In this document: positions 18,986 to 53,836 of the stretch, piece after piece
Layout: each line of letters opens with the position of its first letter
Position numbering within the stretch: position 1 is the stretch's first letter
From: Candidatus Wolfebacteria bacterium GW2011_GWA1_44_24
GTDB lineage: Bacteria; Patescibacteriota; Minisyncoccia; UBA6257; UBA9933
Reading direction: 5' to 3'
Assembly (NCBI GenBank): GCA_001001115.1
Contig: LCIO01000001.1
Span: forward strand, 236,339-300,338
DNA length: 64,000 bases
Translations under genes and position numbers: made by a program
Notes under the pieces: model-generated
Database searches by the model: none
What the model was told of the DNA's origin: nothing
What the model saw: the letters and a program-made list of their open reading frames with translations, nothing else

Positions 18986-19064
18986 ATGTAAAGATTTTTG
19001 AAACCTAAACGGAAGCGCAGTCCGCCAGCTGGCGGACGTGAGCGGGTTGAAAAAACTTTACATT
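18986..19064. other. Conserved hairpin element, copy 1: ~55-nt core GAAACCTAAACGGAAGCGCAGTCCGCCAGCTGGCGGACGTGAGCGGGTTGAA flanked by an inverted repeat (TGTAAAGATTTTTG / AAAAAACTTTACA)
   Basis: Near-identical core (1 nt difference, in the inner hairpin loop) is present at 24769-24822. Internal perfect hairpin GTCCGCC-AGCT-GGCGGAC. The outer stems differ in sequence between copies but are self-complementary in each. Confidence 0.6.
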
Positions 19065-24343: not shown

Positions 24344-25789
24344 ATGAAAATGAATCCGAAAATATTTAAAGCTTACGATATCCGCGGCAAATACCCGCGC
24401 GAAATAAACGAAAATATTGTAATGGAAATAGTGGATAAATTTTTACCCCGCAAGTTAAAAATTAAAATTATTATCGGCCGCGACGCTCGTTTAAGTTCGC
24501 CGAATTTATACAAAGCGGCAATCAAACGATTAAAAATTCAATCCGCCGACTGGCGGAGGAAATTAAAAATTGTCCCGGCGGGATTGATTACCACACCGAT
24601 GCTTTCTTTTTTGGTCAATTATCTGAAAGCTGATTTCGGCATAATGATTACCGCCAGCCATAACCCAAAAGAATACAATGGTTTGAAAATCGTCGGCAAA
24701 AACGCCATGCCGATAAGCGGAAAAGATGTTTTACAATTATTATAAACAACAAATACAAAATTGTTTCTGAAACCTAAACGGAAGCGCAGTCCGCCAACTG
24801 GCGGACGTGAGCGGGTTGAAGAAACAATTTTGTATTCGTTGTTGACGATGGCTGTTATGAATTATATAAAAATTTACGCTGATTTTCTTAAAAAATTTTT
24901 ACGACCTCGACAAAAATTGAAGGTGGTTTTTGATTGTTCCAATGGCGTTGCCGGCCCGATAATTAAACAGCTGACAACCGACAGCCAACAACTGAAAACT
25001 TTTTTGATTAATGAAAAATCCGATGGCAATTTTCCGGCTCATGGGCCGAATCCGCTTAAACCCAACGCGTTAAAACAACTCCAAAATGAAGTCAAAAAAC
25101 ACAAAGCTACTCTCGGAATAATTTTTGACGCCGACGGCGACAGAGTATTTTTCATCGATAATCGCGGCCGCTTTGTTGACCCGGACGTGATTTCTCGATT
25201 GTTAATTTGGCACCTTAAGCCAAAAAAAGTTGTTATCGATGTCCGGACGGGATGGCTCGTAAGAAAATTCAAAATTAAAAATTCAAAATTAAAAATTCAC
25301 GAATCAAGCGTTGGGCATTATTTCATAAAAAAATTAATGCGCAAAACTAATGCGGATTTAGGCGTCGAACGTTCGGGGCATTATTATTTCGGACCAAACA
25401 TTCATAATCAAAAAAATCTTTATTTTGATTCGGGAATCCTTGCCGCCATTGAAACAATCAATGCGGTTTCAAAATTGCCGTATTCTTTGGCGGATTTCAG
25501 CGATTTATTTCCGCCGCTTTATCGCTCCGGCGAAATCAACATAAAAATCGGCCAGCCGCAAAATATAATAAAAAAAATTGAAAAAAAATTGAAAAATCAA
25601 GCAATAAAAACTTCTCGCCTTGACGGCTTAACGATGGAATTCAATCCTTCGGCAAGCCCGGGAAAAGCCTGGCGGTTTAATCTGCGGCCGTCAAACACCG
25701 AACCGCTGGTCAGATTAAATATTGAAGCAACCGATAAACGATTTCTTGACAATTTTCTTAAAAAGATTTATTCTTTAATTAGCAATTAG
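24344..25789 (+). pseudogene. manB: Phosphomannomutase/phosphoglucomutase (α-D-phosphohexomutase) interrupted in frame by a ~98-nt hairpin element that introduces a single TAA stop (24743-24745). ORF-track pieces: 24344..24745 and 24761..25789.
   Basis: Fragment 1 has KAYDIRG and the active-site TASHNP…YNGLKIV. Fragment 2 has KVVFDCSNGVAGP (Mg loop region), GIIFDADGDR, …GVERSGHYYF (sugar-binding). Both fragments are in the same frame (24761-24344=417=3×139) and are separated only by the TAA plus the element translation. Confidence 0.75.
24747..24844. other. Conserved hairpin element, copy 2, inserted inside the PMM/PGM gene: same core as copy 1, flanked by a different inverted repeat (CAACAAATACAAAATTGTTTC / GAAACAATTTTGTATTCGTTG)
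   Basis: Core identical to 19000-19052 except CAGCTG→CAACTG. Flanking 21-nt near-perfect inverted repeat. The insert keeps the host gene frame but is preceded by an in-frame TAA. Confidence 0.65.
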
Positions 25790-26428: not shown

Positions 26429-26785
26429 TTAAAGCAAATTAAAAAAATGCGGCCAAAAAACTAGCAAACCGATAATAACTGCTCCAAAACTGGCCACTAA
26501 AACTATCGCGGCCATCAAATCCTTTATAAGCCGCACCTGCTCGTTATATTTTGGCTGAAGGAAATCCAACAATCGCTCAATGACGACATTAACCAATTCC
26601 AAAGTCAGCACCGTGAAAATTGCCGTCATCAAAACCGCTTTTTCGGTCCGACTGGTCGGAAAATAAAGCATTGCCGCGACAACCAGCGCGGCAACGATAA
26701 TCATTATCTTAAAATTCCGCTCGTGAATAAGGGTTTCTTTCAAGCCGTTAAAAGCGTATTTGAAGCTATCGCGCAATTTTCTCAT
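26429..26785 (-). CDS. dgkA: Diacylglycerol kinase / undecaprenol kinase (DgkA family)
   Basis: 118 aa, 3 TM helices, with …RNFKIM…EKAVLMTAIFTVLTLELVNVVIE… matching the DgkA signature region. Confidence 0.75.
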   Translation of the reverse strand: MRKLRDSFKYAFNGLKETLIHERNFKIMIIVAALVVAAMLYFPTSRTEKAVLMTAIFTVLTLELVNVVIERLLDFLQPKYNEQVRLIKDLMAAIVLVASFGAVIIGLLVFWPHFFNLL

Positions 26786-27602
26786 CTTTATTTAAATTAT
26801 AAAAGTTTTCAAAAACTTTTGCCACTAAAATCGGGCCGGCGCCGCCTGGCGTAGGCGTATAAAATGACAATTGATCTCCGATATTTGATAATTGACCGCT
26901 ATCTAAATCGCCGGAAATTTTATTGTTTTCATCAAAAGAATATCCGAAATCAATTATTCCGGCATCTTGTTTCAATATTTCCGGTTTTATCAAACCGGCC
27001 TGACCAACGCCAGAAATTATCAAATCGTAATTTTTCAAGTCGGATAAATCGCTGTTTTTTTTAAAAATTTTCAGCTCCTTGACTTGGTTCATTAACCAAA
27101 CGGCAACCGGTTTGCCGATTAAAAAACCGGCGCCAACAACTGCGACCTTAACATCTGACAACCGACATTTGACCTCTGACAATATTTCTTCAACTGTTTC
27201 GATTGCCGGCGGCAAAACCGGATTTCGGCCAACATAAAACGCGCCAAGCGCCCGCTCGCCCAAAACATCAATATCTTTTTCCCGCGGAATAACGTTCAAT
27301 ATATAATGCTTATTAATATGTTCCGGCAAAGGCAACTGCACAATCACGCCGCCAACCTTTTTTAAAAGCGCGATTTTTAAAACTTCTTTTCGCAACTCGT
27401 CGTTTTTTAAATCTGACGAGGATTTATAAATTCGAAAATCAATACCCAACTCTTTGGCGACATTTTCTTTTTGTTTTAAAAAACTTTCCGATTGCTGATT
27501 ATCGCCCGCTAAAACCGCCGCCAAAATTTTCTCCGGTTTAGGCCGGGTTTTCAATTCGTCAATGATATTTTGAGCTATTTTTTTACCGTCAATAATCTTC
27601 AT
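26766..27602 (-). CDS. folD: Bifunctional methylene-THF dehydrogenase/methenyl-THF cyclohydrolase FolD
   Basis: IIDGKKIA, VQLPLP, VVGAGFLIGKP, TPTPGGAGP motifs. Confidence 0.9.
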   Translation of the reverse strand: MKIIDGKKIAQNIIDELKTRPKPEKILAAVLAGDNQQSESFLKQKENVAKELGIDFRIYKSSSDLKNDELRKEVLKIALLKKVGGVIVQLPLPEHINKHYILNVIPREKDIDVLGERALGAFYVGRNPVLPPAIETVEEILSEVKCRLSDVKVAVVGAGFLIGKPVAVWLMNQVKELKIFKKNSDLSDLKNYDLIISGVGQAGLIKPEILKQDAGIIDFGYSFDENNKISGDLDSGQLSNIGDQLSFYTPTPGGAGPILVAKVFENFYNLNKDEKIAR

Positions 27603-27603
27603 T

Positions 27604-27996
27604 TTAAATATTTTTATAATGCTTTATTACATAATCTTTTCTACAAATTGTCAAGGCAATTAAATCTATTTGCCAACCCTTCTTGTCGTCAATCAATTCT
27701 AATCGATGATTGGCGTACAAAGAAGCGGTTCTTTGAAGTTTTGCCAATTTAACACTCGTCAGCTGATTTTCGGCCGAAATTTGATTGTAATTTTCGTTAA
27801 CGGTGTGTAATTTTTCCACACCACGAACGGTTTTTACTTCTACAAACACCAGGGTTTTATCCGGCGCCTTGGCAATTATATCCAATTCTCCCCATTTTTG
27901 CCTAAAATTGCGTTCAATTATCTTATATTTATTCTCCATAAGATATCTACAAGCTATATTTTCACCAAACTGGCCGATTTCTGATTTATAAGTCAT
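27604..27996 (-). CDS. yraN: YraN/UPF0102-family endonuclease
   Basis: GENIACRYL…GELDIIA…LVFVEVKT (PD-(D/E)xK-like UPF0102 signature). Confidence 0.75.
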   Translation of the reverse strand: MTYKSEIGQFGENIACRYLMENKYKIIERNFRQKWGELDIIAKAPDKTLVFVEVKTVRGVEKLHTVNENYNQISAENQLTSVKLAKLQRTASLYANHRLELIDDKKGWQIDLIALTICRKDYVIKHYKNI

Positions 27997-28099
27997 TTAA
28001 TCAATTATACAATAATAAAGTGAATATGCCACACCGTAATCAATGTAAAACGTTTTCACATGCTAAACAAAAAACAAATTTGCCACAAAATGATTAAAA

Positions 28100-28115
28100 A
28101 TGTTTCACGGCAAAC
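28100..28115. promoter_or_regulatory. parS-like centromere site TGTTTCACGGCAAACA (14/16 to consensus TGTTTCACGTGAAACA), embedded in a cluster of 4 further TGTTTCAC half-sites (≈28047-28225)
   Basis: Direct read of sequence. Half-sites: cgTTTTCACat (28051), gTGTTTCACac (28179), aTGTTTCACac (28198), TGTTTTACAc (28210). No parAB in window. Confidence 0.5.
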
Positions 28116-28228
28116 ATTAAAAAACGCTATGATTAAAAAACCCACATTTCATGCGGGTTTTTAAAAATGGCCGTTTCCAGTGTTTCACACTTTTTACAAT
28201 GTTTCACACTGTTTTACACTTTTTGTCA

Positions 28229-28258
28229 AGAAAAAAGCCCGAAATTGAATCTCGGGCT
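28229..28258 (-). terminator. Rho-independent terminator downstream of galT
   Basis: Hairpin AGCCCGA-aattgaatc-TCGGGCT followed (on the minus strand) by TTTTTT. A second hairpin+T-run lies at ~28137-28162. Confidence 0.65.
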
Positions 28259-28282
28259 TTATAATTTTACATCATTTACATT

Positions 28283-29317
28283 TTAGGCTTTTCTTAAAAC
28301 TTCTGCCGCTTCTTCTGGAAGCACATTGTTAATATGGAAACCCGTGGCGATTTCAAATGAACTATAGAGCCGAATTCTCGGGATTATTTCGATGTGCCAG
28401 TGAAAATCTTCCCGAAGGGTCTGCCACTTTGACCAACAAGCATTCTGGTTAGGGGCGGTATAGACAACCATTGTGTAAGAAACGCCGTCTTCTTCGCCGG
28501 TAACCACCGCGTTGAGTTTCATAATCGCGGTTTTAAGCATAGCGGCGAATTCCAGGTCAAAAAACGATTCTTCAAAAAACGGTTCATGACGCTTCGGCAA
28601 TACAAGCATTTCATACGGCACCCTGCTCCATGGCGGCGCTAAAAGGATATGACTCCTGCTCTCCATTATTATCCTTTCGCCGTTTTTCTCTTCCACTCCG
28701 AGAATATCGCACAAAAGACACCTGTTTTTCGAATTAAAATGCTTTTTCAGATGCCAGAGTTTTTCTTTCATCGCCGACGATATTACCGGCGAACCGACCA
28801 CTACCGCGTGGGGATGGGTTATTTTTACCCGCGTCCCGCTGCCGTAGTTTTTATAAACCAGGACTTGCCGGATATTCCCGTCTTTTTTAAGGTCGCTGAT
28901 TCTTTCCCCGAATACGCCTAGAATTTCCTTGATTTTTTCCGCCGGCATATTGGGCCAGGTATCATCGTGGCGCGATGACTCGACGATAATCTCATTGGCG
29001 CCCGTAGCGGAAATAAAATCGTAAATATCCATGCCGAGCCGTTTTTGTTTTTCTACCCGAAAAATCGGATTTTTATCCGGCACCACCCGGATCCGCCAGC
29101 CTGGTTGATTGGGCCAACCGTTATCGCGGCGCGCCGTTATTTCCGAAGGTGTCAATTTTTCATTGCCTTCGCAAAACGGACAAGGCTCGATACCGCATTT
29201 GCCATCTCCTTTGTGATGAATCGTATATTTGCCGCTAAGAGGATTTTTTATGAGATGCGATTCTTCCAGCAAGCTTTTTGTTTCTGACAACATCTTTTCC
29301 TTACTATTCAGTTCCAT
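28283..29317 (-). CDS. galT: Galactose-1-phosphate uridylyltransferase (GalT, HIT superfamily)
   Basis: CPFCEGNE zinc/active-site motif; HxHxQ-like VVYTAPNQ…HWHIEIIP. 344 aa. Confidence 0.8.
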   Translation of the reverse strand: MELNSKEKMLSETKSLLEESHLIKNPLSGKYTIHHKGDGKCGIEPCPFCEGNEKLTPSEITARRDNGWPNQPGWRIRVVPDKNPIFRVEKQKRLGMDIYDFISATGANEIIVESSRHDDTWPNMPAEKIKEILGVFGERISDLKKDGNIRQVLVYKNYGSGTRVKITHPHAVVVGSPVISSAMKEKLWHLKKHFNSKNRCLLCDILGVEEKNGERIIMESRSHILLAPPWSRVPYEMLVLPKRHEPFFEESFFDLEFAAMLKTAIMKLNAVVTGEEDGVSYTMVVYTAPNQNACWSKWQTLREDFHWHIEIIPRIRLYSSFEIATGFHINNVLPEEAAEVLRKA

Positions 29318-29415
29318 ATAAATAACCTCCCTTTTAAGTTGTTAAGCGTTCATGCCCGTTTTGGCTCACGTTGAACGGATTATAACAAAAATTTCCAGAT
29401 AAGAAAACTTTCCTG

Positions 29416-29487
29416 TGGGCGATGCAGGGATTGAGCCTGCGGCCTTCTCGGTGTAAACGAGACGCTCTGCCACTGAGCTAATCGCCC
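29416..29487 (-). tRNA. tRNA-Val (anticodon TAC)
   Basis: Minus-strand cloverleaf GGGCGAT-TA-GCTCAGTGGCAGAGC-G-TCTCG-TTTACAC-CGAGA-…-GCAGG-CTCAATC-CCTGC-ATCGCCC-A. CCA not encoded. Confidence 0.85.
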
Positions 29488-29491
29488 GACA

Positions 29492-30067
29492 TTACATCCT
29501 TTTTATCATCCTTCTGACAATATTCTCAAAAATAACGATAACAACAATGAAGCCGATTATCAAGAAAGCGGCGGTTTTCAGGTCTTGACGCAAAACATTT
29601 GTTTTGTAAGCGAAAACATACCCCAAAGAAACAAAAGTAATGGACCAAATAAGTCCGGCCAGCCAGCTGTATCTCAGCAACTCCTTAAGCGGAATTTTTA
29701 CATAGCCGCTGGCCACCAAAACAAGCTTGTTAAAACTCCAGGCGAATTTTGAAATAAAAACATACAAGCCGTCGTTAATTTTCAATTTTTCCAAAAAAGC
29801 GCCGGCTTTTTCCAGATGAATGAACAGAAATTTTTTTCTTTTTGATTCGGCAAGTTTCCAGCCGATTGACCAATAGATTAAATCGTGGACAATCGAGGCT
29901 GCAAAAGCTACAATTATAACATCAAGAATATCAAGGTAGCCATTGCGGCTCAGAACTCCGGCCAAAAGCAAAATCACTTCTCCCTCAATCAAAACGGCGA
30001 GAAAAATAATTACATACGAGATAAAGCGATGAGTTTCGGAAAAATTAACGAGCAATGATTCAACCAT
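29492..30067 (-). CDS. DedA/SNARE-associated family membrane protein
   Basis: Start at MVESLL. The ORF-track N-terminal extension is the translation of repeat module M1. DedA signature …VLSRNGYLDILDVIIVAFAASIVHDLIYW…. Confidence 0.7.
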   Translation of the reverse strand: MVESLLVNFSETHRFISYVIIFLAVLIEGEVILLLAGVLSRNGYLDILDVIIVAFAASIVHDLIYWSIGWKLAESKRKKFLFIHLEKAGAFLEKLKINDGLYVFISKFAWSFNKLVLVASGYVKIPLKELLRYSWLAGLIWSITFVSLGYVFAYKTNVLRQDLKTAAFLIIGFIVVIVIFENIVRRMIKRM

Positions 30068-30074
30068 AAAAAGT

Positions 30075-30204
30075 GTGCAGTATTCTTGAATTAGTCCGAA
30101 CGCATTTCGTCCTGAGCTTGTCGAAGGGTGAGGAAGTCCCACCGCGAAAATTCGGAAAGGCGGCGGAGCCGCACCGCTGACAATTTCAAGTTTTTCTTTG
30201 GCGG
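30075..30204. repeat. Intergenic modular repeat, copy A (modules M1 GGTGCAGTATTCTTGAATTAGTCCGAACRCATTTCG … M2 GCGGAGCCGCACCGCTGACAATTTCAAGTTTTTCTTTGGCGGC)
   Basis: Same two end modules at 51518-51656 with a different GC-rich middle. M2 also occurs at 52812-52852. Confidence 0.7.
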
Positions 30205-31029
30205 CTACTTTATCTTTTTAACTTTAATCCCATGTTTATGCAAGAGTTTAATCCCATCATCATTTCCATAAGGATGCAAATAATAAACTTCCGAAATATG
30301 TTTTTTCAAAATTTCTTGAGAGCAAAGAATACATGGCGGAATAAGAATATAAAGTTTTGTCTTTTTCAAATCAACACCTTTAGATTCTGCTTTTTTGATA
30401 ACAATATGCTCGGCATGTATGTCTTTGCTCTCAATGTTGTCCGACTCGGCAATAATCTTTCCTTGCAAAGTAATAAGCGCGGAAATTTTTCCAATAGATG
30501 CCTTGCTATGGTCAGCCAAAAAATACAAGCGTCGAACAATTGGATTTTTAATTTTGGAATAATCGCGCTGTGCCAATATCTGTTTGGCAAGAAAACTCGT
30601 GCTGGAGCAGCGCACGTCTTTCTCAAGGAAAACTACTTTAATATTTGGAAATTTGTCGTTAATCAAACGAGCGCGGTATTTTCTATACTTCATCGTCTCT
30701 TTCGAGAAAACGTAGTTTCGCGGTTTGATAATTTCCAAATATTTTTCGTAGTGAGACGGCTTATCGAGAATCAAAACAAAATCAACAAATTCAAGTGCCG
30801 CGACAATTTCAGCACGACGTTTTTCACTAACGATGGGGCGATTAAATCCCTTCCGAACCCTAACTGTTTTGTCCGCTTGGACGATTACGACGAGGGGTCT
30901 GCCGACTTCGCTACATTTCCGCAAATAGCGGAGGTGGCCAGCATGGAACAAATCAAAAACGCCACCGACGAGCGTTGCTGTATGTGGCTTGAGCGTCTTT
31001 TTGAGCTTTGTAAGGGTAATAATTTTCAT
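30205..31029 (-). CDS. Fusion protein: N-terminal cytidylyltransferase-fold nucleotidyltransferase (archaeal RibL/FAD-synthase-like, HxGH motif) + C-terminal CMP/dCMP-type zinc deaminase domain (HAE…PCxxC)
   Basis: N-terminus GGVFDLFHAGHLRYL plus …NRPIVSEKRRAEIVAALEFVDFV (compare RibL …RKPIIPEEQRREMVEALKPVD). C-terminus HAEHIVI…LIPPCILCSQ. Preceded by module M4 TTTTGGGGGAAGAAAATTTTTT directly 5' of the ATG. Confidence 0.6.
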   Translation of the reverse strand: MKIITLTKLKKTLKPHTATLVGGVFDLFHAGHLRYLRKCSEVGRPLVVIVQADKTVRVRKGFNRPIVSEKRRAEIVAALEFVDFVLILDKPSHYEKYLEIIKPRNYVFSKETMKYRKYRARLINDKFPNIKVVFLEKDVRCSSTSFLAKQILAQRDYSKIKNPIVRRLYFLADHSKASIGKISALITLQGKIIAESDNIESKDIHAEHIVIKKAESKGVDLKKTKLYILIPPCILCSQEILKKHISEVYYLHPYGNDDGIKLLHKHGIKVKKIK

Positions 31030-31034
31030 TCATT

Positions 31035-31155
31035 ATTTAAAAAATTTTCTTCCCCCAAAATGCAAAATCGCCAATTCGTTTTTGCCCCCAAAATTGAATA
31101 CCGATTGGTCGCCGAGCGAAGCGAGGCGAACCTTTCAAACTTGCGAATTCCTTTC
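31035..31155. repeat. Intergenic modular repeat, copy E (module M4 AAAAAATTTTCTTCCCCCAAAAT + tRNA-proximal module …CAAACTTGCGAATTCCTTTC) in the 3' trailer of tRNA-Leu
   Basis: M4 is identical to 53641-53663. tRNA-proximal part resembles 53741-53760. Confidence 0.6.
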
Positions 31156-31240
31156 TGGTGCCGAGGGTGGGATTTGAACCCACACGCCTTGCGGCGCCAG
31201 CTCCTAAAGCTGGTGCGTCTGCCAATTTCGCCACCTCGGC
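31156..31240 (-). tRNA. tRNA-Leu (anticodon TAG), CCA encoded
   Basis: GCCGAGG-TG-GCGAAATTGGCAGACGC-ACCAGC-TTTAGGA-GCTGG-long variable arm-GGGTTCAAATCCCACCCTCGGCACCA. Confidence 0.85.
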
Positions 31241-33185: not shown

Positions 33186-33250
33186 TTTTAAAATTATTTG
33201 TTATTATGAATATATTGATATTGGTTGAATTTAATTTATAATTTAATTGA

Positions 33251-33670
33251 ATGATTAAATCATTTTCCGGAAATAAATTTTTATATTTGATTGCGATATT
33301 TATCATTTTTTTAAACATTCTGTTTTTTATCGGTATTAATAATATATCAGCGGCGGAGCCTCCTCCCGGCGGCACAACATACACCACTCCCTCTAAAAGC
33401 GGCGGTTTATACGACCCCTTGGGGGGACAAACCATCACCAGTTTAATCCAAAATCTTATCGGGTTTCTCATTAAAATCGGCGCGCCTATCGTGGCTTTGA
33501 TGGTTTTATACGGCGGTTTTTTGATATTGACCGCCGGCGACAAACCCGAGCAGATTACCAAGGGAAAAAACACCATTCTTTACGCGGCTATTGGCTATAC
33601 AATTATCTTGTGTTCTTGGGGCGTTATTTATATAATTCAACAAGTACTGGGAGCGAAATTAATAAAATGA
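33251..33670 (+). CDS. Small secreted two-TM-helix protein, subfamily B (…YGGFLILTAG…); first gene of the tandem array
   Basis: Promoter TTGATA-16-TATAAT upstream. Signal peptide/anchor then AEPPPGG…, TM1 IGAPIVALMVLYGGFLILTAG, loop DKPEQITKGKN, TM2 TILYAAIGYTIILCSWGVIYII. Paralog of 35319..35708 (-). Confidence 0.7.
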   Translation: MIKSFSGNKFLYLIAIFIIFLNILFFIGINNISAAEPPPGGTTYTTPSKSGGLYDPLGGQTITSLIQNLIGFLIKIGAPIVALMVLYGGFLILTAGDKPEQITKGKNTILYAAIGYTIILCSWGVIYIIQQVLGAKLIK

Positions 33671-33999
33671 AAATCTTAAACAAAATTTCATTATTTTCAA
33701 CAATTTTTTATTTAATGGGCATTTTCCCATTAATTGGTTTTGCTCAAGAATCTCCCGTTAAAAGCATTGATGATGTAATGAATGTTTTAAAAAGCATTGT
33801 TAATGTGATGTACACGGCTTTCTTTATTGTGGCGATTATGTTTATAATCCTTGCGGCTTTTAATTATTTAACCGCCCAAGACGATCCGGAAAAAATCAAA
33901 AGCGCCACTCGCCAGATAATGTGGGCGGCGGTGGCGATAGCGGTGGCTTTAATTTCGGTAGGATTTAATAAAATTGTAGAAAGTTTTATAAAACCATAA
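33667..33999 (+). CDS. Small secreted two-TM-helix protein, subfamily A (…LAAF(N/T)YLTAQxDPEKIK…), array gene 2
   Basis: ATGA-coupled to gene 1. Signal peptide …PLIGFA|QE. TM1 …MYTAFFIVAIMFIILAAFNYLTAQDDPEKIKSATRQIMWAAVAIAVALISVGF. 56-nt stretch identical to gene 3. Confidence 0.7.
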   Translation: MKILNKISLFSTIFYLMGIFPLIGFAQESPVKSIDDVMNVLKSIVNVMYTAFFIVAIMFIILAAFNYLTAQDDPEKIKSATRQIMWAAVAIAVALISVGFNKIVESFIKP

Positions 34000-34461
34000 A
34001 TGTTTTTGAATATAAAAAAAATCTTTATTTTATTATTGATATTGGGAATTATTTTCCCGATTTTTTCATTTGCTGCGTTTCCTGTGGGAGAAGTTGCTGG
34101 GCCTGGAGGAAAATTACCAGAAGGCGCGGGAATTAAAGAAGTTTCTGATTTAGTTGGCATTCTTACAAAAGTTCTTGCGTGGATATATACAATTCTTTTT
34201 ATTATTGCGATTATATTCATCCTCATTGCCGCTTTCACTTATTTAACCGCTCAAGCGGACCCGGAAAAAATCAAAACTGCCACTCGCCAGATAATGTGGG
34301 CGGCGGTGGCGATAGCGGTGGCTTTAATTTCGGTGAGTATTAATGTGATAATAAGCAATTTTATAAGCCCAAGCGATAGTGGAGTTTTAGTAAATCCTAG
34401 CGGACAAAGTCCTTATTATTTAGATGTAGATCTTGGAATTTTCAATAAACCGCGAAAATAA
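34000..34461 (+). CDS. Small secreted two-TM-helix protein, subfamily A, array gene 3 (longest; extra C-terminal tail)
   Basis: Start codon immediately after the gene 2 stop. Signal peptide …IFSFA|AFPV. Conserved core IAAFTYLTAQADPEKIKTATRQIMWAAVAIAVALISV. Confidence 0.7.
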   Translation: MFLNIKKIFILLLILGIIFPIFSFAAFPVGEVAGPGGKLPEGAGIKEVSDLVGILTKVLAWIYTILFIIAIIFILIAAFTYLTAQADPEKIKTATRQIMWAAVAIAVALISVSINVIISNFISPSDSGVLVNPSGQSPYYLDVDLGIFNKPRK

Positions 34462-34467
34462 ATAAAG

Positions 34468-34836
34468 ATGAAAAAAGTTTTAATTTTATCAATATTTTTA
34501 TCAATATTTATTGCAAATAATTCTTTTGCCATAACTGCCGGAACAATTCCTTCAGCCGAGCAATTGGGCGTTTCTAACGCCCCGAAAATTGAAAAAGTTG
34601 ACACATTAGTTAATATTATTAGAAATATCGTAAAGTGGACATATATAATTTTCTTTATCGTGGCCGTATTTTTTATAATTTTAGCGGCTTTCACTTATTT
34701 AACCGCTCAAGCGGACCCAGAAAAAATCAAAACTGCCAATAAACAAATTCTTTACGCGGTTATCGCCATTGTTATCGCTCTTTTAGCCATCGGCTTTGAT
34801 ACGATAATAAAATCATTTCTGCAAAGCGGCGCTTGA
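34468..34836 (+). CDS. Small secreted two-TM-helix protein, subfamily A, array gene 4
   Basis: Signal peptide …NNSFA|ITAG. Core NIVKWTYIIFFIVAVFFIILAAFTYLTAQADPEKIKTANKQILYAVIAIVIALLAIGFDTII. Confidence 0.7.
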   Translation: MKKVLILSIFLSIFIANNSFAITAGTIPSAEQLGVSNAPKIEKVDTLVNIIRNIVKWTYIIFFIVAVFFIILAAFTYLTAQADPEKIKTANKQILYAVIAIVIALLAIGFDTIIKSFLQSGA

Positions 34837-34904
34837 TTGCTTTTTAGCTTGAATGTTTTAATATATTAATATGTATTGAAAAGGTCGCAAATGCTTATTT
34901 AATT

Positions 34905-35258
34905 ATGAAAACAAAAATTTTTATTATTGCCGCGGGATTATTGGCAGTTTCGGCAATCGCGGGAAATGTCGCTTTAGCGATTCAAATTCCGGGTATCAGT
35001 CAGGTCGGCCCCACATCGGTGACCGGAACAGTGGATGTGATTAAAAATATTGTTAAGTGGGTTTATATTCTATTCTTCATCATCGCCGTTCTTTTCATTA
35101 TTTTGGCGGCTTTCAATTATTTGACTGCCCAGGGCGACGAAGAAAAAGTCAAAACCGCGAAAAATCAGATTATTTACGCGGTAGTGGCGATTGTCGTGGC
35201 TTTGCTGGCCGTCAGTTTTGACACCATTATCAGCAATTTCCTGCAAAGCGGTCAATAA
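34905..35258 (+). CDS. Small secreted two-TM-helix protein, subfamily A, array gene 5
   Basis: Signal peptide …NVALA|IQIP. Core NIVKWVYILFFIIAVLFIILAAFNYLTAQGDEEKVKTAKNQIIYAVVAIVVALLAVSFDTII. Confidence 0.7.
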   Translation: MKTKIFIIAAGLLAVSAIAGNVALAIQIPGISQVGPTSVTGTVDVIKNIVKWVYILFFIIAVLFIILAAFNYLTAQGDEEKVKTAKNQIIYAVVAIVVALLAVSFDTIISNFLQSGQ

Positions 35259-35278
35259 ATTCTCAAAATTTTCCAAAC

Positions 35279-35316
35279 AAAAAACCCCGTTAGAATTTTC
35301 TATCGGGGTTTTTGTT
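35279..35316. terminator. Bidirectional terminator between convergent array genes
   Basis: AAAAACCCCG-ttagaattttctat-CGGGGTTTTT (A-run/T-run flanked). Confidence 0.5.
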
Positions 35317-35318
35317 TA

Positions 35319-35708
35319 TCAGCAGAATTTTCCCGCCTTTCCCCATTCCCAGGGCTTGAAGCTGCCTCCTCCTAAAATTTCTATAACTTCCCTAATAATC
35401 AGCCAGGCGCCCACGGCGATTAAAACGCCGATAATCGCCGATTGGATGATTTTCCGGCCTTGGGCCGCCCGTTCGGCCGATTCTCCGGCGGTCAATATTA
35501 CAAATCCGCCGTAAACAATGAAAATCACCGTAACGGGAATGGCGATGTTGTAAAGAGCGAAATTAATGACATTTTCAGCCAAAGTTTTCAGATGGCAAAA
35601 ATTGCACGCCGGTTCTCCGGCGCCGCCGCACGGCACAAGACCGGCGGCTTGAACAGCCATAACAGAAAACACGAAACAGAAAATGGAAAATAGAATTATT
35701 TTTTTCAT
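35319..35708 (-). CDS. Small secreted two-TM-helix protein, subfamily B (…YGGFVILTAG…), convergent with the array
   Basis: Signal peptide …AVQA|AGLVPCGG. Cys-rich N-terminus (CGGAGEPACNFC). TM1 IAIPVTVIFIVYGGFVILTAGESAERAAQGRK, TM2 IIQSAIIGVLIAVGAWLII. Paralog of 33251..33670. Confidence 0.7.
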   Translation of the reverse strand: MKKIILFSIFCFVFSVMAVQAAGLVPCGGAGEPACNFCHLKTLAENVINFALYNIAIPVTVIFIVYGGFVILTAGESAERAAQGRKIIQSAIIGVLIAVGAWLIIREVIEILGGGSFKPWEWGKAGKFC

Positions 35709-42311: not shown

Positions 42312-44150
42312 ATGATGAATAATTTATCAAAAAATATTTTGTGGGCGGTGATGACTCTTCTAATAATCGCTTTTGTTTTTTCTTTGCTCTATTCGGGACA
42401 AAAAACGCCGGCGGTTCTAACTTTGGACCAATTGGCGACAAAAATCAATTCCGGTGAAGTTTCAAAAATTGTTGTCAGCGGCAATGATTTAAAGATTGAA
42501 TTAAAAACCGCTGAAAAAGCGGTTTCTAAAAAAGAAGCTGAAACCAGTTTGACCGAAACTCTTAAAAATTACGGCGTTGAGCCGCTGGCGCTTCAAAAAG
42601 TCGGCTTTGAAATTCAGGAAGAATCGGGATTGCGATTTTGGCTTTCAATTCTAATCCCGTCGCTTCTGCCCCTGATTATTATCGGCGTTTTCTTCTGGCT
42701 GATGTTCCGCCAGGCAAAAACCGGAATGAGCCAGGCCTTCACTTTCGGCAAAGCCAATATCAAGCTTTTTTCTCAATTTAAAGACCGGATCACCTTCGAA
42801 GACGTGGCTGGACTCAAAGAAGCCAAACAAGAATTGATGGAAGTGGTTGATTTTCTGAAAAATCCCAAAAAATATCTGGAAATCGGCGCCAAAATTCCGC
42901 GAGGCGTTTTATTGTACGGCGCGCCGGGTACCGGGAAAACGCTTTTGGCGCGCGCCGTTGCCGGCGAAGCCAATGTTCCGTTTTTCCATATCTCCGGTTC
43001 GGAATTTGTGGAAATGTTTGTCGGTGTGGGAGCTTCGCGCGTCCGCGATCTTTTTGACACCGCCAAAAAAGCCGGCCGGTCAATAATCTTTATCGATGAA
43101 ATTGACGCGGTGGGACGGGAACGCGGCGCCGGACTCGGCGGCGGGCATGACGAAAGGGAACAAACCTTAAATCAAATTTTGGTGGAGATGGACGGCTTTG
43201 AAAAAAACGACGCCCGGATAGTTATCGCGGCCACCAATCGTCCGGATGTTTTGGACCCGGCGTTGCTTCGGCCGGGCCGGTTTGACCGCCGGGTAATTCT
43301 TGATTTGCCGGATATCAACGACCGCGAAGAAATTTTAAAAATCCATTCTCTCGGTAAAATGCTGGTAAAAGATATCAGTTTGCGGAGAGTGGCGGAACGC
43401 ACGCCGGGATTTTCCGGAGCTGATTTGGCGAATTTAATGAATGAAGCGGCTATTTCAGCGGCTCGTCAAAATAAACTCTCCATCAGCCAGCAGGATATTT
43501 TTGATTCCGTCGAGAAAGTTCTGCTCGGACCCGAACGCCGCTCCAGAATTCTATCCAAAAAAGAAAAAGAAATTACCGCTTATCACGAAGCCGGACACGC
43601 TTTGGTGGCGGCGGGCTTAAAAAATGCCGACCCGGTTCATAAAGTATCAATCGTCGCCCGAGGCCGAGCCGGCGGCTACACCATGAAGTTGCCGATTGAG
43701 GAAACTTATTTGCGCACCAAATCCCAGTTTATGGCGGATCTCGCCACTATGCTTGGCGGGTATGTTTCCGAAAAAATCGTTTTCAGCGATATTTCCACCG
43801 GCGCTTCTAATGATTTGCAATCCGCTTCTTCTTTAGCGAGAAAACTGGTGACTAAATTCGGGATGAGCGAAAAATTGGGACCGATAACTTTCGGCAAAAC
43901 CGACGAATTGGTTTTTTTAGGCCGGGAAATCGCCATGGAAAAAAATTATTCCGAAAAAGTGGCGGCGGAAATAGATAAAGAAATAAAAGAAATCATTGAA
44001 AAGGCTCGTCAAGCGGCAAAAAGAATTATTGTTTCCAAGCGGAAATCCCTGGAAAAACTCGCTAAAACTTTGATGGAGAAAGAAACGCTTGAACGGGAAG
44101 AGTTTGAAAGCTTGATAAAAAGTTTTAAATTAAGAACAATAACTGTATAG
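42312..44150 (+). CDS. ftsH: ATP-dependent zinc metalloprotease FtsH
   Basis: Two N-terminal TM helices. AAA Walker [22 protein letters not shown], zinc motif HEAGHALV. 612 aa. Confidence 0.95.
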
Positions 44151-44165
44151 ATAAAACCGTTAAAC

Positions 44166-51517: not shown

Positions 51518-51656
51518 GGTGCAGTATTCTTGAATTAGTCCGAACACATTTCGCCGCCTGCGGCGGCAAAGATTCGCCTGCCTGAATTGGTGCGGCTCGC
51601 CCCGCCGAGCGGGGCTCGCCGCGTTCTTTGACAATTTCAAGTTTTTCTTTGGCGAC
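51518..51656. repeat. Intergenic modular repeat, copy B (M1 … GC-rich palindromic middle … M2)
   Basis: M1 and M2 ends are shared with copy A. Middle contains CCGCCTGCGGCGG and CGCCCCGCCGAGCGGGGCTCGCCGCG palindromes. Confidence 0.7.
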
Positions 51657-51710: not shown

Positions 51711-52571
51711 CTAAACCCTCTGTTTAAGTTCTTTTCGAACATACAGTGTTGGTCGCCAAGGGTGGCACATAAAAATAGAGCCGAAGCTGACGGCTTTCGC
51801 GCCGAGACTTCTGACTTTTTCGAGATCGTCGAAATCCCACACGCTTGGTCCGATTACAGGAATTGTTGTCAGCTCGGTAAGTTTCTTGACCAAACCCCAT
51901 GTGAATGGCTGAGCAATTTTTCCAGATACACCACCACCCCCAAGGATTTCAAGAGGGCTTCGGCGATTTGGGAAAGCTACTGCCCAGGGAATGCTGTTGA
52001 TTGAAATGGCTTCGACAAGATTCTCAGCCCCTTTCACGATTTGCGAAATATCGTGAGTGACAGACACTTTAAGAATCAACGGCAGACGAGAATTGGTCTT
52101 GACCGCTTCGCAACTTGCAATGACTCTCGCTGTGTCTTGCAAGACGTAAGTTTCAGCGTTCGGACATGAAGCGTTGATTTCCAACCCAGCTAAGTCAAAG
52201 CCGTTCAGCATCCCTGCCATTTCCGCTAATTCTTCCGGTTCTCCGAAAATCGAAACAATCAGAGGAATTTTTGTTGAATTGAGTGATGGGCCGATTTTCT
52301 TACACCACCAATCAATCCCTGGGTTTGACAGCCCGACTGCGTTGACAACCCCGCCACGGACTAATCGCAGGCAACGAAATGGATTATACCATCGCAGATT
52401 TCCTTCCGTTGGCCGAAGTGTCAATGTTTTGGTTACCGAAGTAAAGAGTGTTGGGTCAAGAAGCCCGATCCAACGCCAAGGTTGTTCCCATAGCCAACCC
52501 TTTCCGTCGAAACTCAATGCACCACTTGCGGTCATGTATTCAAAGGTATGACCATTGGAAAACCTTATCAT
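51711..52571 (-). CDS. Dihydroorotate dehydrogenase-family flavoprotein (class-1 DHOD/PyrD-like TIM barrel), higher GC
   Basis: SD AAAAAGGAGGTGAATAACC-ATG. Motifs YMTASGA (NASG-like), TKTLTLRPTEGN, VNAVGLSNPG, LEINASCPN, GGGGVSG, IPVIGPSV(GG). Confidence 0.6.
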   Translation of the reverse strand: MIRFSNGHTFEYMTASGALSFDGKGWLWEQPWRWIGLLDPTLFTSVTKTLTLRPTEGNLRWYNPFRCLRLVRGGVVNAVGLSNPGIDWWCKKIGPSLNSTKIPLIVSIFGEPEELAEMAGMLNGFDLAGLEINASCPNAETYVLQDTARVIASCEAVKTNSRLPLILKVSVTHDISQIVKGAENLVEAISINSIPWAVAFPNRRSPLEILGGGGVSGKIAQPFTWGLVKKLTELTTIPVIGPSVWDFDDLEKVRSLGAKAVSFGSIFMCHPWRPTLYVRKELKQRV

Positions 52572-52714: not shown

Positions 52715-52852
52715 AAAAAATTTTCTTTTACCCAAAATTCAAAATATGGTTTCCTCCAGAGGTGGGCAGGCGAGCCGATGTTTTTCTCTGGGTTCTTTTG
52801 CGGTTTTGAGCGGAGCCGCACCGCTGACAATTTCAAGTTTTTCTTTGGCGGC
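52715..52852. repeat. Intergenic modular repeat, copy C (M4-like + M3 GAGCCGATGTTTTTCTCYGGGTTCTTTTGCGGTTTTGAGCGG + M2)
   Basis: M3 is shared with 53670-53718. M2 is identical to copy A. Confidence 0.7.
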
Positions 52853-52905: not shown

Positions 52906-53634
52906 CTACTTGCTTACATCGTAAGCAACGCGGACATTAGACCCCTCGGGTTTTATTTTTCTGATTGTTATTCCGCGAATATCTGCAAGATTGTTTACAT
53001 GTGTCCCGCCACAAGGAACGCCGAAGTCTCCATACATCACAACGCGAGCAGGTTTTCCCTCTAGCAGATATTCAGGGACATGATGGCAAACTTCGTGCAT
53101 CTTTTCCTTCGGCATAAAAATAAGTTTGGTTGGGCGATTTTCACCAATAAATTTATTGCACAAATTTTCAATGTCGGTTTTCAATTTTTCCTTATCCAGT
53201 TCGCCAAGACTTCCGGCGTATTCAACATAAGGACCTTCTGGAAAATGATAGCCCTTGCCGGGCACCCAATTAAGTTTCAAGGCAGTAACCGCCATGTCAA
53301 CAACATGACCGGCAGAGTTAATACGACTGTTGAGTGCGCGGCGTGTTTCATCAACTACACACTTGACGGTTTCTCCGGTTTGAAAAGTTACGGAATCAAA
53401 TTTTCCGATGTGCTTCACTACTCCCTCAACAAAGCGCACTTCTTCAACGGAAAATTTTCCAGAAGGTCTTTCGATTACGCCCTTGTCGTATGGCTGACCG
53501 CCACCTTGCGGATAGAAAACAGTTTGATCCAAAAGAACAATATCCTTACCGTTTTCTTGCGTTACCTCCAAAACCTTTGCTTCAGTAGCAAGGAGATTGA
53601 AATCTTCCAAATAAAGCAGTTTCGTTGGTTGCAT
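52906..53634 (-). CDS. alaX: AlaX-like alanyl-tRNA editing protein (Ser/Gly-tRNA(Ala) deacylase; Thr/Ala-RS second additional domain)
   Basis: Zinc-binding HxxxH (…AGHVVDMAV…) and CxxxH (…PCGGTH…) motifs. 242 aa. M4 module directly upstream of ATG. Confidence 0.75.
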   Translation of the reverse strand: MQPTKLLYLEDFNLLATEAKVLEVTQENGKDIVLLDQTVFYPQGGGQPYDKGVIERPSGKFSVEEVRFVEGVVKHIGKFDSVTFQTGETVKCVVDETRRALNSRINSAGHVVDMAVTALKLNWVPGKGYHFPEGPYVEYAGSLGELDKEKLKTDIENLCNKFIGENRPTKLIFMPKEKMHEVCHHVPEYLLEGKPARVVMYGDFGVPCGGTHVNNLADIRGITIRKIKPEGSNVRVAYDVSK

Positions 53635-53640
53635 AGGATT

Positions 53641-53760
53641 AAAAAATTTTCTTCCCCCAAAATTAAAATATGGTTCGAGCCGATGTTTTTCTCCGGGTTC
53701 TTTTGCGGTTTTGAGCGGCGCGGCTTCGCCGCCTTTCCGATCAAACTTGCAATTTCCTAC
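53641..53760. repeat. Intergenic modular repeat, copy D (M4 + M3 + inverted M2-like segment) abutting the tRNA-Arg 3' end
   Basis: M4 identical to 31039-31061. M3 matches 52772-52812. Segment CCGATCGGAAAGGCGGCGAAGCCGCG is the reverse complement of part of copy A. Confidence 0.65.
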
Positions 53761-53761
53761 A

Positions 53762-53836
53762 TGGTGCCCCCGCGAGGAATCGAACCTCGATTTTAGCCTT
53801 CGGAGGGCTATGTTCTATCCATTGAACTACGGAGAC
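53762..53836 (-). tRNA. tRNA-Arg (anticodon CCG), CCA encoded
   Basis: GTCTCCG-TA-GTTCAATGGATAGAAC-A-TAGCC-CTCCGAA-GGCTA-AAAT-CGAGG-TTCGATT-CCTCG-CGGGGGC-ACCA. Acceptor stem has two G·U pairs. Confidence 0.7.

Follow-up and report, generated by a model that had tools for sequence, protein, structure and literature searches.

Intergenic repeats beside tRNA genes in CPR bacteria: probable arms of miniature single-gene cassettes derived from a large serine recombinase gene

The window, by which we mean the whole 64-kb stretch of DNA analyzed, contains two arrays with three cargo genes, the second being a two-gene array, and both tRNAs and all neighboring genes lie on the minus strand. Read along that strand, locus 1 has the order tRNA-Leu(UAG), copy B, the gene at 31029..30205, copy A and dedA, and locus 2 has the order tRNA-Arg(CCG), copy E, alaX, copy D, a gene for a dihydroorotate-dehydrogenase-like (DHOD-like) protein, copy C and a 161-aa gene. 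The span 30075-31155 is exactly one unit, behind tRNA-Leu. The features, named according to the reading developed below, are as follows.

31156..31240, minus strand: tRNA-Leu(UAG), identified by ARAGORN and Rfam; unit 1 is anchored (attached) at its 3' end, ...GGCACCA.
31030..31155, minus strand: copy B, 5' arm of unit 1, consisting of a GAA spacer, M5 (31135-31152), the hairpin HPX (31107-31134), segment x (31062-31106) and M4 (31037-31061), then 7 nt to the ATG.
30205..31029, minus strand: cargo 1, a 274-aa fusion of a cytidylyltransferase-like domain and a dCMP/cytidine deaminase (Pfam PF01467 and PF00383).
30075..30204, minus strand: copy A, 3' arm of unit 1, consisting of M2 (30178-30204), HP1, MID, a divergent second hairpin and M1 (30075-30109), which ends in CTGCAC next to the dedA ATG.
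29492..30067, minus strand: dedA (VTT domain), host flank outside unit 1.
53762..53836, minus strand: tRNA-Arg(CCG); the second array is anchored at its 3' end, ...GGGCACCA.
53635..53761, minus strand: copy E, a 5' arm variant, consisting of a TGT spacer, M5, an inverted HP1, M3, linker and M4, then 7 nt to the alaX ATG.
52906..53634, minus strand: cargo 2, a free-standing AlaX-type editing-domain protein of 242 aa (C-terminal part of Pfam PF01411, and PF07973).
52715..52852, minus strand: copy D, an inter-cassette junction, consisting of M2, HP1, M3, a degenerate linker and a degenerate M4.
51711..52571, minus strand: cargo 3, a DHOD-like protein of 286 aa (Pfam PF01180).
51518..51656, minus strand: copy C, terminal 3' arm of the second array, consisting of M2, two GC-rich hairpins and M1 ending CTGCACCA.

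The five intergenic copies have exact modules of 21-23 nt in common, where chance predicts none in the 64-kb window: the M2 core (22 nt) occurs three times, and M1 (23 nt), M3 (21 nt) and M4 (22 nt) occur twice each, compared to 0.00-0.07 module matches expected from dinucleotide shuffles, even with 3 mismatches permitted. A preliminary description had placed the copies at 30075-30204, 31035-31155, 51518-51656, 52715-52852 and 53641-53760, and these coordinates were borne out, as was the statement that two of them touch tRNA 3' ends, with B and E beginning directly past the tRNA CCA. The same description resolved the copies into four modules, M1 to M4. Those modules are real, but the list was incomplete, and we found that the copies also share M5 (AGGAAWTYGCAAG), immediately past the tRNA CCA; HPX, the GC-rich hairpin in copy B; a linker (GAAAAACATCGGCTCGAACCATATTTT) in the M3-M4 interval; and the palindromes HP1 and HP2. 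The claim that part of copy D is the reverse complement of part of copy A was wrong, as the inverted match to copy A (30152-30183) is in copy E (53709-53740) and copy D matches copy A in direct orientation.

The positions first given for the modules relative to genes held up well. M4 ends 7-8 nt 5' of the ATG of 31029..30205 and from that of alaX, and a degenerate M4 lies ~144 nt 5' of the DHOD-like ATG, close to the ~150 nt originally noted. The DHOD-like gene is preceded by a Shine-Dalgarno sequence of its own and, upstream, by a terminator-like hairpin (52678-52701); with these signals and this distance, it illustrates that not every between-arm gene fits the unit neatly. M1 abuts the dedA ATG (30067) and accounts for a spurious GTG-started extension (ORF 29492..30142), again as described. 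ORFs inside the arms have already been called by several gene callers.

The modules recur outside the window: in a search of species-representative genomes, a 20-mer of M2 was present in at least 120 stretches. Among the matches listed, almost all were Patescibacteria of many lineages, an apparent taxonomic range that mis-binning could inflate because many of the loci are on short MAG contigs. M1 followed M2 in 89 of the 125 matches listed, most commonly at 117 nt from the start of the 20-mer; these loci were chosen by an exact M2 match, and estimates of conservation are biased as a result. Against a profile of 70 CPR copies, copies A and C scored nhmmer E-values of 1.1e-33 and 1.9e-24, respectively.

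Across CPR genomes the units follow one order: a tRNA 3' end (...GCACCA), a 5' arm of ~125 nt, one cargo ORF and a 3' arm of ~125 nt. The 5' arm is either M5-hairpin-M4 or M3-linker-M4, with the cargo ATG ~7 nt past M4, and the 3' arm is M2-hairpins-M1, again ending GCACC(A). Module maps of ~45 loci gave the pattern tRNA or M1, then M5-HPX-M4 or M3-linker-M4, a gap of 461-1126 nt, and M2-MID-M1. In total, 50 M4-to-M2 intervals fell within 461-1126 nt, and in many of these gaps a single ORF spanned 84-101% of the length, usually with its start codon 7-8 nt past M4. An arm of the copy B type is also found upstream of LSR (large serine recombinase) genes and of other cassettes, the M3-linker-M4 arm of copy E occurs at more than 15 other loci, and the M2-HP1-M3-linker-M4 junction of copy D recurs at two (L035 and L130). 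All 29 M5 sites were preceded by ...CACCA plus 3 nt. The anchor was a real tRNA in 18 of them (11 Arg, 5 Leu, 1 Met and 1 Gly), M1 in 6 and other sequence in 5, four of which end in CACCA; in unit 1, M5 likewise comes after GCACCA plus 3 nt, as at the 18 tRNA-anchored sites elsewhere. The cargo was highly diverse, with 39 proteins falling into 34 clusters that include methyltransferases of three kinds, a LOG-like protein, asparaginase, PyrB, GTP cyclohydrolase II, a CYTH protein and a BNR protein. These loci demonstrate both a cassette architecture linked to tRNAs and the diversity of what the cassettes carry.

Every module matches part of an LSR gene that is found CPR-wide, namely the region upstream of it, codons ~30-53, or codons ~447-487 in reverse complement, demonstrating homology between the repeats and this gene. 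M2 corresponds to codons ~30-40, M3 (including that of copy E) to codons ~46-53, and the copy E linker to codons ~447-455. In copy D, M2-HP1-M3 stays in the LSR frame (VSGAAPLKTAKEP vs VASFQEAKTAKEP). Copy B, read on the plus strand, is a remnant of codons ~454-487, and tblastn with the LSR of locus L087 aligned residues 454-487 to 31060-31161 (+) at 68% identity (E 1.5e-10). The modules are contiguous around the LSR gene in nine fully displayed loci and, by module map, in several more. The L087 ORF (4247-5809) contains the Resolvase, Recombinase and Zn_ribbon_recom domains (PF00239, E 4e-21; PF07508, 2e-15; PF13408, 3e-8), which identify the module-linked enzyme as a serine recombinase, and the gene is bracketed by inverted repeats of 100 nt that are 98% complementary. 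Third codon positions within M2 showed a conservation of 0.95-0.97 vs a background of 0.5-0.65, indicating constraint at the DNA level. At E<=1e-40 the family comprises 7,758 clusters, of which the best 120 were all at least 79% identical. Most of these best matches covered only ~94% of the query, as expected if LSR conservation stops near residue ~487, where the tRNA/M1 junction lies. When the 120 loci and the window were searched together, 10 of these 121 sequences had an LSR match of at least 200 aa; the window was not among them.

Comparisons between genomes bear on whether the units move. Near-identical units occur in different genomes; for example, loci L090 and L124 have one unit in common, at 94% over 888 nt, and the similarity stops exactly at the M1 end. 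Homologs of cargo 1 with 73-88% identity are found in four other genomic contexts. In one of them (L260), where the homolog follows a tRNA-Arg, the insert is closed by an exact 17-nt direct repeat of the tRNA 3' end, and L261 has a 14-nt direct repeat of this kind. Comparison with relatives placed a break in synteny exactly at the dedA start: in the relatives, dedA lies 4 nt after tRNA-Ile(UAU) and the modules are absent, whereas in the window M1 occupies the position held by tRNA-Ile, which here precedes a different gene. These comparisons show the same unit in different genomes and a synteny break exactly at a tRNA 3' end. Within the window, the tRNA ends and M1 have only GCAC(CA) in common, which looks like a generic pseudo-tRNA end; characterized LSRs recognize sites of ~40-50 bp, and the units use at least four anchoring tRNA species. 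No empty site, circular junction or presence/absence polymorphism was found among strain-level contigs. Exact-protein look-ups of dedA and of GIY-YIG, the gene next to tRNA-Arg, returned identical contexts throughout, with several strain-level contigs breaking at the arms. Scanning metagenomes for empty sites with the 26-nt tRNA-Leu 3' end listed 119 unrelated matches, none occupied, this pattern being too widely conserved to single out empty sites. Viral contigs (IMG/VR) had zero matches to M2 or M4 and therefore gave no sign of a phage origin.

We conclude that the repeats are probably the conserved arms of CPR-wide miniature gene cassettes of ~1.0-1.4 kb, each with a single cargo ORF, that derive from an LSR gene, are linked to tRNAs and are mobilized by an LSR. 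In this reading, a unit starts 3 nt past the GCACCA 3' end of a tRNA or past the look-alike end of a preceding unit. The 5' arm, in either of two forms (M5-hairpin-x-M4 or M5/HP1-M3-linker-M4), sets M4 ~7 nt 5' of the cargo ATG and probably supplies expression signals. The 3' arm (M2-HP1-MID-HP2-M1) terminates in a pseudo-tRNA 3' end, GTTCGrAC...CTGCACC(A), and by re-creating the target such an end could allow units to stack into arrays. All arm modules derive from the LSR gene that is abundant in CPR bacteria, and we infer that site-specific recombination by a trans-acting LSR is what inserts, excises or shuffles units. The GCACCA/M5 junction is the candidate recombination site, possibly together with the HP1 palindrome. 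HP1 occurs in three junction types (M2/MID, M2/M3 and M3'/MID), which point to a second kind of exchange beyond this simple model. Of the earlier suggestions, att-site remnants of an integrative element come closest to the evidence, given the abutment on tRNA 3' ends, the LSR homology and the direct repeat in L260; the arms are not simple remnants, however, but stereotyped sequences around single variable cargo genes in many CPR genomes.

A different reading of the same homology is that the copies are inert scars, the decaying traces left as an integrative element encoding an LSR was repeatedly inserted, inverted and deleted next to tRNA genes, with ordinary host or passenger genes between them and arms that are functionless today and look conserved only through recent spread of the element. 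In favor of this, each module is a piece of the LSR gene or of its flanks, some LSR genes (L052, L062 and L075) are truncated, with junctions after M2 or M3, no LSR gene is present in the 64-kb window and no other integrase in its units, and strain polymorphism was not seen. Random decay, however, would not be expected to yield one type of unit with 7-8 nt between M4 and the ATG and one ORF drawn from 34 unrelated cargo families, nor arms up to 94-96% identical between Jorgensen-, Magasanik-, Nomura- and Lipton-bacteria and WWE3, nor a shared unit such as that of L090 and L124 whose similarity stops at M1. We consider this reading unlikely.

A further step down in probability, and in our judgment a rather remote one, is the proposal that the ~125-nt arms are homology landing pads, at which genes are swapped in a RecA-dependent manner after DNA uptake with no need for a site-specific recombinase. 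Both arms are long enough and similar enough between genomes for homologous exchange, the mosaic arms, and junctions lying at short GC-rich palindromes, are compatible with homologous or template-switch exchange, and pilus and secretion ATPase genes are present in CPR genomes, including the source genome. This proposal leaves unexplained the strict linkage to tRNA GCACCA, the duplicated tRNA 3' end in L260, the physical association with LSR genes and the DNA-level conservation of M2 inside the LSR ORF.

The repeats are neither a small RNA family nor ordinary promoters. Searching Rfam 15 at gathering and E-value thresholds, we found that tRNAs alone reached threshold. Single-strand folds of the five copies on both strands were no better than shuffles except for copy C (z = -3.2), whose fold is attributable to its palindromes, and RNAalifold on 70 aligned copies gave essentially no consensus structure. 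Hairpin loops flip between two complementary forms, which is DNA-palindrome behavior, and 10 full elements are antisense to both flanking genes. These results give no support to the small non-coding RNA family suggested at first. The companion suggestion of promoter/5'-leader cassettes is plausible for M4 only, where a co-oriented ATG follows no more than 40 nt away in 14 of the 16 close cases, mostly at a constant distance of ~6-7 nt; M1 has no orientation preference toward neighboring genes (10 co-oriented, 9 opposite), and scans for sigma-70 promoters and intrinsic terminators found none inside the modules. The HP1...M1 segment was also considered as a tRNA gene; it has an acceptor-like pairing (GGTGCGG/CTGCACC) but no T-arm, anticodon arm, covariation or ARAGORN call, and is kept as a pseudo-tRNA 3' end only. 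Some copies are preceded by a promoter module close to consensus (TTGAAA-17-TATGAT), from which transcription would begin at M2, CCGC/GCGG of HP1-MID shows a few paired changes, and the M4-start codon distance is fixed, but with the negative structure searches, flipping loops and indifferent M1 orientation, we give hardly any credence to a structured non-coding RNA family or to cis-regulatory leaders or trailers. It is similarly far-fetched that the copies are REP/BIME-like or MITE-like mosaic palindromes moved by another transposase (e.g. RAYT or IS200/605 TnpA) and serving structural or regulatory roles, as their variable module order and orientation, GC-rich imperfect palindromes, short M2-M1 forms (47-59 nt) and nested other palindromes might suggest, because the modules share homology with a serine recombinase gene, bracket cargo rather than standing as solo repeats, and are common to several Patescibacteria classes when described REPs are species-specific, and because an unsystematic look recognized no target-site duplication or HUH-type ends.

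The genomes of CPR bacteria are tiny and their metabolism patchy, and little is understood of the ways in which they acquire and exchange genes. Beyond the proposed LSR-mobilized cassettes themselves, we tentatively put forward the broader idea, for which the odds are somewhat less than even, of an integron-like LSR gene-capture system in CPR/Patescibacteria, in which single genes for metabolic or surface proteins sit between recombinase-derived arms, are inserted at GCACCA ends behind tRNA genes, are stacked by way of the pseudo-tRNA end and are swapped across very distant CPR lineages. Our search of the literature on the module sequences, CPR repeats, Patescibacteria serine recombinases, and combinations of cassette, tRNA and recombinase found no description. 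Should the model hold, gene exchange would have a concrete vehicle defined by its sequence, in which one cargo gene lies between two conserved ~125-nt arms behind a tRNA anchor, with ties to an LSR family of thousands of members. Such a system would parallel integrons with a serine recombinase as its enzyme and would be a source of compact natural LSR/att systems; if true, the broader idea would amount to a major route of HGT in reduced-genome bacteria that has so far gone undescribed. Among the cargo are genes of nucleotide metabolism (PyrB, DHOD-like protein, dCMP deaminase and GTP cyclohydrolase II). The arm sequences can be used now as probes for a cassette census of metagenomes and for excision or integration junctions in reads, and they could also point out where repeats have broken assemblies or ORFs are mis-annotated in CPR MAGs.

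Among known systems, the RNA families of Rfam 15 offer no covariance-model match or covariation-supported structure. BIME/REP elements of Enterobacteria and BOX elements of Streptococcus pneumoniae resemble the repeats in having few motifs, variable order and orientation, and imperfect palindromes. Those elements, however, are confined to one species or genus, whereas the CPR modules span very distant Patescibacteria lineages, are recombinase-derived, bracket cargo and are tied to tRNAs, so that the palindromes do not make them REPs or BIMEs. They are also unlike MITEs, as the units carry an ORF, their ends are only weakly similar as inverted repeats, and no target-site duplication was seen. 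The inverted repeats that bracket the serine recombinase gene in related loci have the geometry of an invertible segment, as in the DNA invertases Hin, Gin, Cin and Pin, but the repeats are 100 nt vs ~26 bp, the enzyme is a large one with Recombinase and zinc-ribbon domains, and alternative expression states are not evident in the CPR loci.

Parallels are also found with tRNA-targeting integrative elements and genomic islands and with LSR elements (phiC31/Bxb1-type integrases, SCCmec Ccr, Tn4451 TnpX and Tn5397 TndX), which we considered together. The associated CPR protein has the LSR domain layout of an N-terminal resolvase domain, a recombinase domain and a zinc ribbon (the L087 ORF), and in related loci its gene adjoins an att-like junction. 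Insertion is right at the tRNA 3' end (18 of 29 M5 sites, both window sites included), with a tRNA-end look-alike at the far boundary (an exact repeat of 17 nt in L260 and one of 14 nt in L261, but only GCAC(CA) in the window); targeting of tRNAs is typical of tyrosine integrases rather than LSRs. The CPR units differ from these integrative elements in being ~1 kb with one gene, in mostly lacking their own recombinase, in using several anchor tRNAs (Arg, Leu, Met and Gly) and in having an LSR ORF that crosses the element boundary.

Compared to integrons, in which the enzyme is the tyrosine recombinase IntI, the CPR units have an LSR as the associated enzyme and a tRNA gene 3' end rather than attI as the anchor. 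They lack GTTRRRY/RYYYAAC cores and the R''/L''/L'/R' anatomy of attC; the 3' arm has an inverted pair (10/12; CTTGAAATTGTC / GACTAATTCAAG) without attC cores. In addition, CPR cassettes have a 5' arm (with the putative leader M4) as well as a 3' arm, both of them pieces of a recombinase gene. The resemblance lies in arrays whose small cassettes mostly have a single ORF and whose cargo is very diverse, in the conserved elements of ~60-140 nt between genes, which are associated with recombination and contain imperfect inverted repeats, in the association with a dedicated site-specific recombinase gene and in cassettes common to distant hosts.

The five repeat copies are present at the positions given in the preliminary description, and the minus strand holds all of the genes around them as well as both tRNAs, in the following order.

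Locus 1, minus strand: tRNA-Leu(UAG); copy B (31035-31155); cytidylyltransferase/deaminase gene (cargo 1, 30205..31029); copy A (30075-30204); dedA; tRNA-Val.
Locus 2, minus strand: tRNA-Arg(CCG); copy E (53641-53760); alaX; copy D (52715-52852); DHOD-like gene; copy C (51518-51656); 161-aa gene.

Cores of the modules recur exactly in the window (M2, 22 nt, three times; M1, 23 nt, M3, 21 nt, and M4, 22 nt, twice each), compared to an expectation of at most 0.07 matches in dinucleotide shuffles with 3 mismatches allowed. As had been described, two copies touch tRNA 3' ends, with B and E starting directly behind the encoded CCA; M4 ends 7-8 nt ahead of two ATGs; and M1 adjoins the dedA ATG, creating a spurious extended ORF. 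The inverted match to copy A that had been placed in copy D lies instead in copy E (53709-53740). Modules M1-M4 are real but are not the full set, which also includes M5 (just behind CCA), the hairpin HPX, a linker between M3 and M4, and the palindromes HP1 and HP2. The span originally described, 30075-31155, is exactly one cassette unit (unit 1: copy B, cargo 1, and copy A), and the second locus is an array of two genes, with copy D (M2-HP1-M3-linker-M4) as the inter-cassette junction. Several independent assemblies of the source population break in copy E/tRNA-Arg or in cargo 1 (contig ends in L274, L275, and L276; contig starts in L268, L270, and L271; L-numbers denote fetched CPR, or Patescibacteria, loci), one being a 91.6-kb contig that stops ~95 nt into copy E; these breaks reflect either arms acting as assembly-breaking repeats or population heterogeneity.

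The window comes from a CPR bacterium of groundwater whose dedA orthologues indicate Wolfebacteria-like Parcubacteria. Scanned for exact matches to an M2 20-mer, representative genomes (one for each species) gave at least 120 stretches. Nearly all matches listed were Patescibacteria MAGs with many lineage names (Jorgensen-, Giovannoni-, Wolfe-, Vogel-, Lipton-, Kaiser-, Nomura-, Nealson-, Uhr-, Falkow-, Magasanik-, Morani-, and Gottesman-bacteria, Microgenomates, and WWE3), some on short contigs for which bin labels may be unreliable. M1 followed within 300 nt in 89 of the 125 M2 matches listed, most commonly at an M2-M1 length of 117 nt measured from the 20-mer start; short forms (47-59 nt) are direct M2/M1 joins, and longer forms contain nested palindromes. 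Outside the searched 20-mer, identity was 94-96% for some pairs of differently named lineages, with an overall median of only 71%, indicating that subfamilies exist. Searching the fetched CPR DNA (0.88 Mb, from loci chosen by exact M2 match) with a profile gave 168 copies or fragments. Scans of IMG/VR with M2 and M4 gave no copy, and full-text literature searches gave no description of the repeats or cassettes.

Module maps of ~45 loci gave a common unit.

Unit: [tRNA or M1 ...GCACCA + 3 nt] - M5 - HPX - x - M4 (or HP1 - M3 - linker - M4) - one gene - M2 - HP1 - MID - HP2 - M1 (x and MID are further shared segments).

The M5 core lies 3-4 nt behind ...CACCA in all 29 cases, the anchor being a real tRNA 3' end in 18 (11 Arg, 5 Leu, 1 Met, and 1 Gly), M1 in six, and another sequence in five, four of these ending in CACCA. 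M4-to-M2 intervals (n = 56) comprised six that are the N-terminus of a large serine recombinase (LSR) gene (117-118 nt) and 50 of 461-1126 nt, many of which are 84-101% covered by a single ORF with its start codon mostly 7-8 nt past M4. Genes within 40 nt downstream of M4 were co-oriented with it in 14 of 16 cases; M1 had no orientation preference toward genes (10 co-oriented, 9 opposite). Cargo is diverse: 39 proteins fell into 34 clusters, including three kinds of methyltransferase, a LOG-like protein, asparaginase, aspartate carbamoyltransferase, GTP cyclohydrolase II, a CYTH protein, a BNR-repeat protein, and many secreted or membrane proteins.

In nine fully read loci of different lineages, and in several more on module maps, the modules are arranged contiguously around a gene for a ~490-520-aa protein, whose Resolvase, Recombinase, and Zn_ribbon_recom domains identify it as an LSR.

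LSR locus: divergent gene <- ATG - M4' - linker' - M3' - HP1 - MID - HP2 - M1 - CCA - M5 - HPX - x - M4 - ~20 nt - ATG of the LSR.
M2: LSR codons ~30-40, coding (E)(F/Y)AAKEKLEIV.
M3 core: LSR codons ~46-53, coding AKTAKEPG.
Linker: LSR codons ~447-455.
Reverse complement of x-HPX-M5: LSR codons ~454-487, encoding REFVFTPKIEYQLVAERSEA...FPVW.

In a tblastn search of the 64-kb window, the LSR had a plus-strand match to copy B (31060-31161; 68% identity; E 1.5e-10), and no intact LSR gene was present. The LSR reading frame is preserved through M2-HP1-M3 in copy D. Short ORFs within arms at 51441-51698, 52645-52854, and 53562-53744, which appear in ORF lists and in public gene calls (JGI 'hypothetical proteins' of 69 and 85 aa), are by-products of recombinase-derived open frames and probably not genes. 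Among 13 LSR genes, conservation at M2 third codon positions was 0.95-0.97 (background 0.5-0.65), and the M2-M3 spacer is a hairpin with compensatory changes (GCTTCC/GGAAGC, GCCTCG/CGAGGC, GCCTCT/AGAGGC), which together indicate nucleic-acid-level constraint inside the ORF. The LSR gene of L087 is preceded by 100 nt that are 98% complementary to a 100-nt stretch within its 3' coding end. The family is very large and comprised 7,758 clusters (90% identity) at E<=1e-40 among 8,000 candidates scored; the best 120 clusters were all at least 79% identical, and most best matches spanned ~94% of the query, consistent with conservation stopping near residue ~487, where the ORF enters tRNA or M1 sequence.

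Inverted repeats of 100 nt bracket the LSR gene in L087 (4104-4203 and 5607-5706) and also in L064, L084, L085, L088, and L132, one repeat encoding the LSR's own C-terminal ~34 residues. Past the element boundary, the LSR ORF continues into sequence antisense to a tRNA or to M1, so the C-terminal tail varies with insertion site; lengths in the family range from 488 to 656 aa.

One unit is common to L090 and L124 (94% over 888 nt), with similarity ending exactly at the end of M1. A cargo-1 homologue in L260 (88% aa identity) lies behind tRNA-Arg(CCG), flanked by diverged M5/M4-like and M2/HP1-like sequence, and a 17-nt direct repeat of the tRNA 3' end ~315 nt past its stop codon is a classic signature of a tRNA-integrated element. 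Other homologues lie behind a duplicated pseudo-tRNA end (L261, 82%), directly behind tRNA-Ile-tRNA-Val with modules absent (L262, 76%), or in an ordinary NDK/AP-endonuclease neighbourhood with tRNA and modules absent (L263, 73%). Three relatives with dedA 66-72% identical share the order FtsH - tRNA-Ile(UAU) - dedA - tRNA-Val where present - UPF0102, also with modules absent; dedA starts 4 nt past tRNA-Ile in L135 and L139, and FolD follows in L135. The window has a different gene after FtsH-tRNA-Ile, and its dedA block lies instead behind the M1 of unit 1, which places the rearrangement breakpoint at the tRNA 3' end, with M1 now in its place. Compared to these relatives, the dedA...FolD-DAGK block has been inverted and relocated, and now lies behind unit 1 (42312-44245 vs 26429-30067), and an MJ0043_C-like gene lies 3 nt downstream of the window's tRNA-Ile. 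In L137 (4493-5000), tRNA-Ile and dedA are separated by a hemerythrin gene, with no modules present; this slot thus gains single genes by other means too.

Two further features of the window were recorded. A near-perfect 99-nt hairpin at 24745-24843 (MFE -48.9 kcal/mol, z -8.7), without a match in Rfam, sits exactly between the halves of a split phosphoglucomutase gene.

24344-24745: ORF, PGM_PMM_I.
24761-25789: ORF in the same frame, PGM_PMM_II-IV.

A second copy of its 62-nt core (95% identity), lacking the outer stem, lies in an intergenic spacer (18995-19056), and the core palindrome TCCGCCAGCTGGCGGA is nested in cassette arms of other CPR genomes (L046, L060, L105, L107, and L125); the hairpin may be another CPR-wide mobile palindromic module. 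At 33200-35700, six paralogous T4SS_pilin (PF18895) genes form a tandem array on both strands, visible as a 222-nt repeat family of 62-73% identity.

Our conclusion is that these repeats form the arms of miniature single-gene cassettes anchored at tRNAs, and that the arms are fossil fragments of an LSR gene and of the att-like region upstream of it. They could possibly be inert scars of an LSR element; truncated LSR genes do stop directly after M2 or M3 (L052, L062, and L075), and among strain-level contigs we found neither an empty site nor a circle junction nor any strain polymorphism. Alternatively, RecA may mediate exchange by using the arms as homology pads. A REP/BIME-like family is unlikely for repeats that occupy fixed places around single genes, palindromic as HP1 and HP2 are. 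A non-coding RNA family is likewise unlikely: copy C, which holds two strong palindromes, folded better than shuffles, and the other single copies did not on either strand; Rfam matched tRNAs only, RNAalifold gave no consensus structure across 70 copies, and HP1/HP2 loops occur in complementary pairs (TCC 35/GGA 5; GCA 31/TGC 10; GAA/TTC), as expected for a DNA palindrome and unlike a constrained RNA loop. Simple sigma-70 and terminator scans gave no signal within modules.

For tRNA-anchored cassettes, the most likely mechanism would be site-specific recombination at the GCACCA/M5 junction by an LSR acting in trans. The uninterrupted M1-CCA-M5 sequence ahead of LSR genes looks as an attP-like or array junction would be expected to look. 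M1 would serve as a generic pseudo-tRNA end, regenerating the target and allowing units to stack; in the window it is identical to the tRNA ends over only 4-6 nt. M4 probably supplies a leader or promoter. Three junction types around HP1 (M2|MID, M2|M3, and M3'|MID), together with the truncated LSR genes, suggest a putative second exchange point at the HP1 palindrome, beyond the simple model.

Judged from sequence, the cassettes would represent a variant of recombinase-associated gene cassettes and may be mobile. Like genomic islands, they insert at tRNA ends, but a unit measures ~1 kb and has one gene, in most cases with no recombinase of its own. Their closest functional likeness is to integron cassette arrays; unlike integrons, however, they are associated with a serine rather than a tyrosine recombinase, lack attC cores, and are anchored at a tRNA instead of attI, and thus do not belong to that class.
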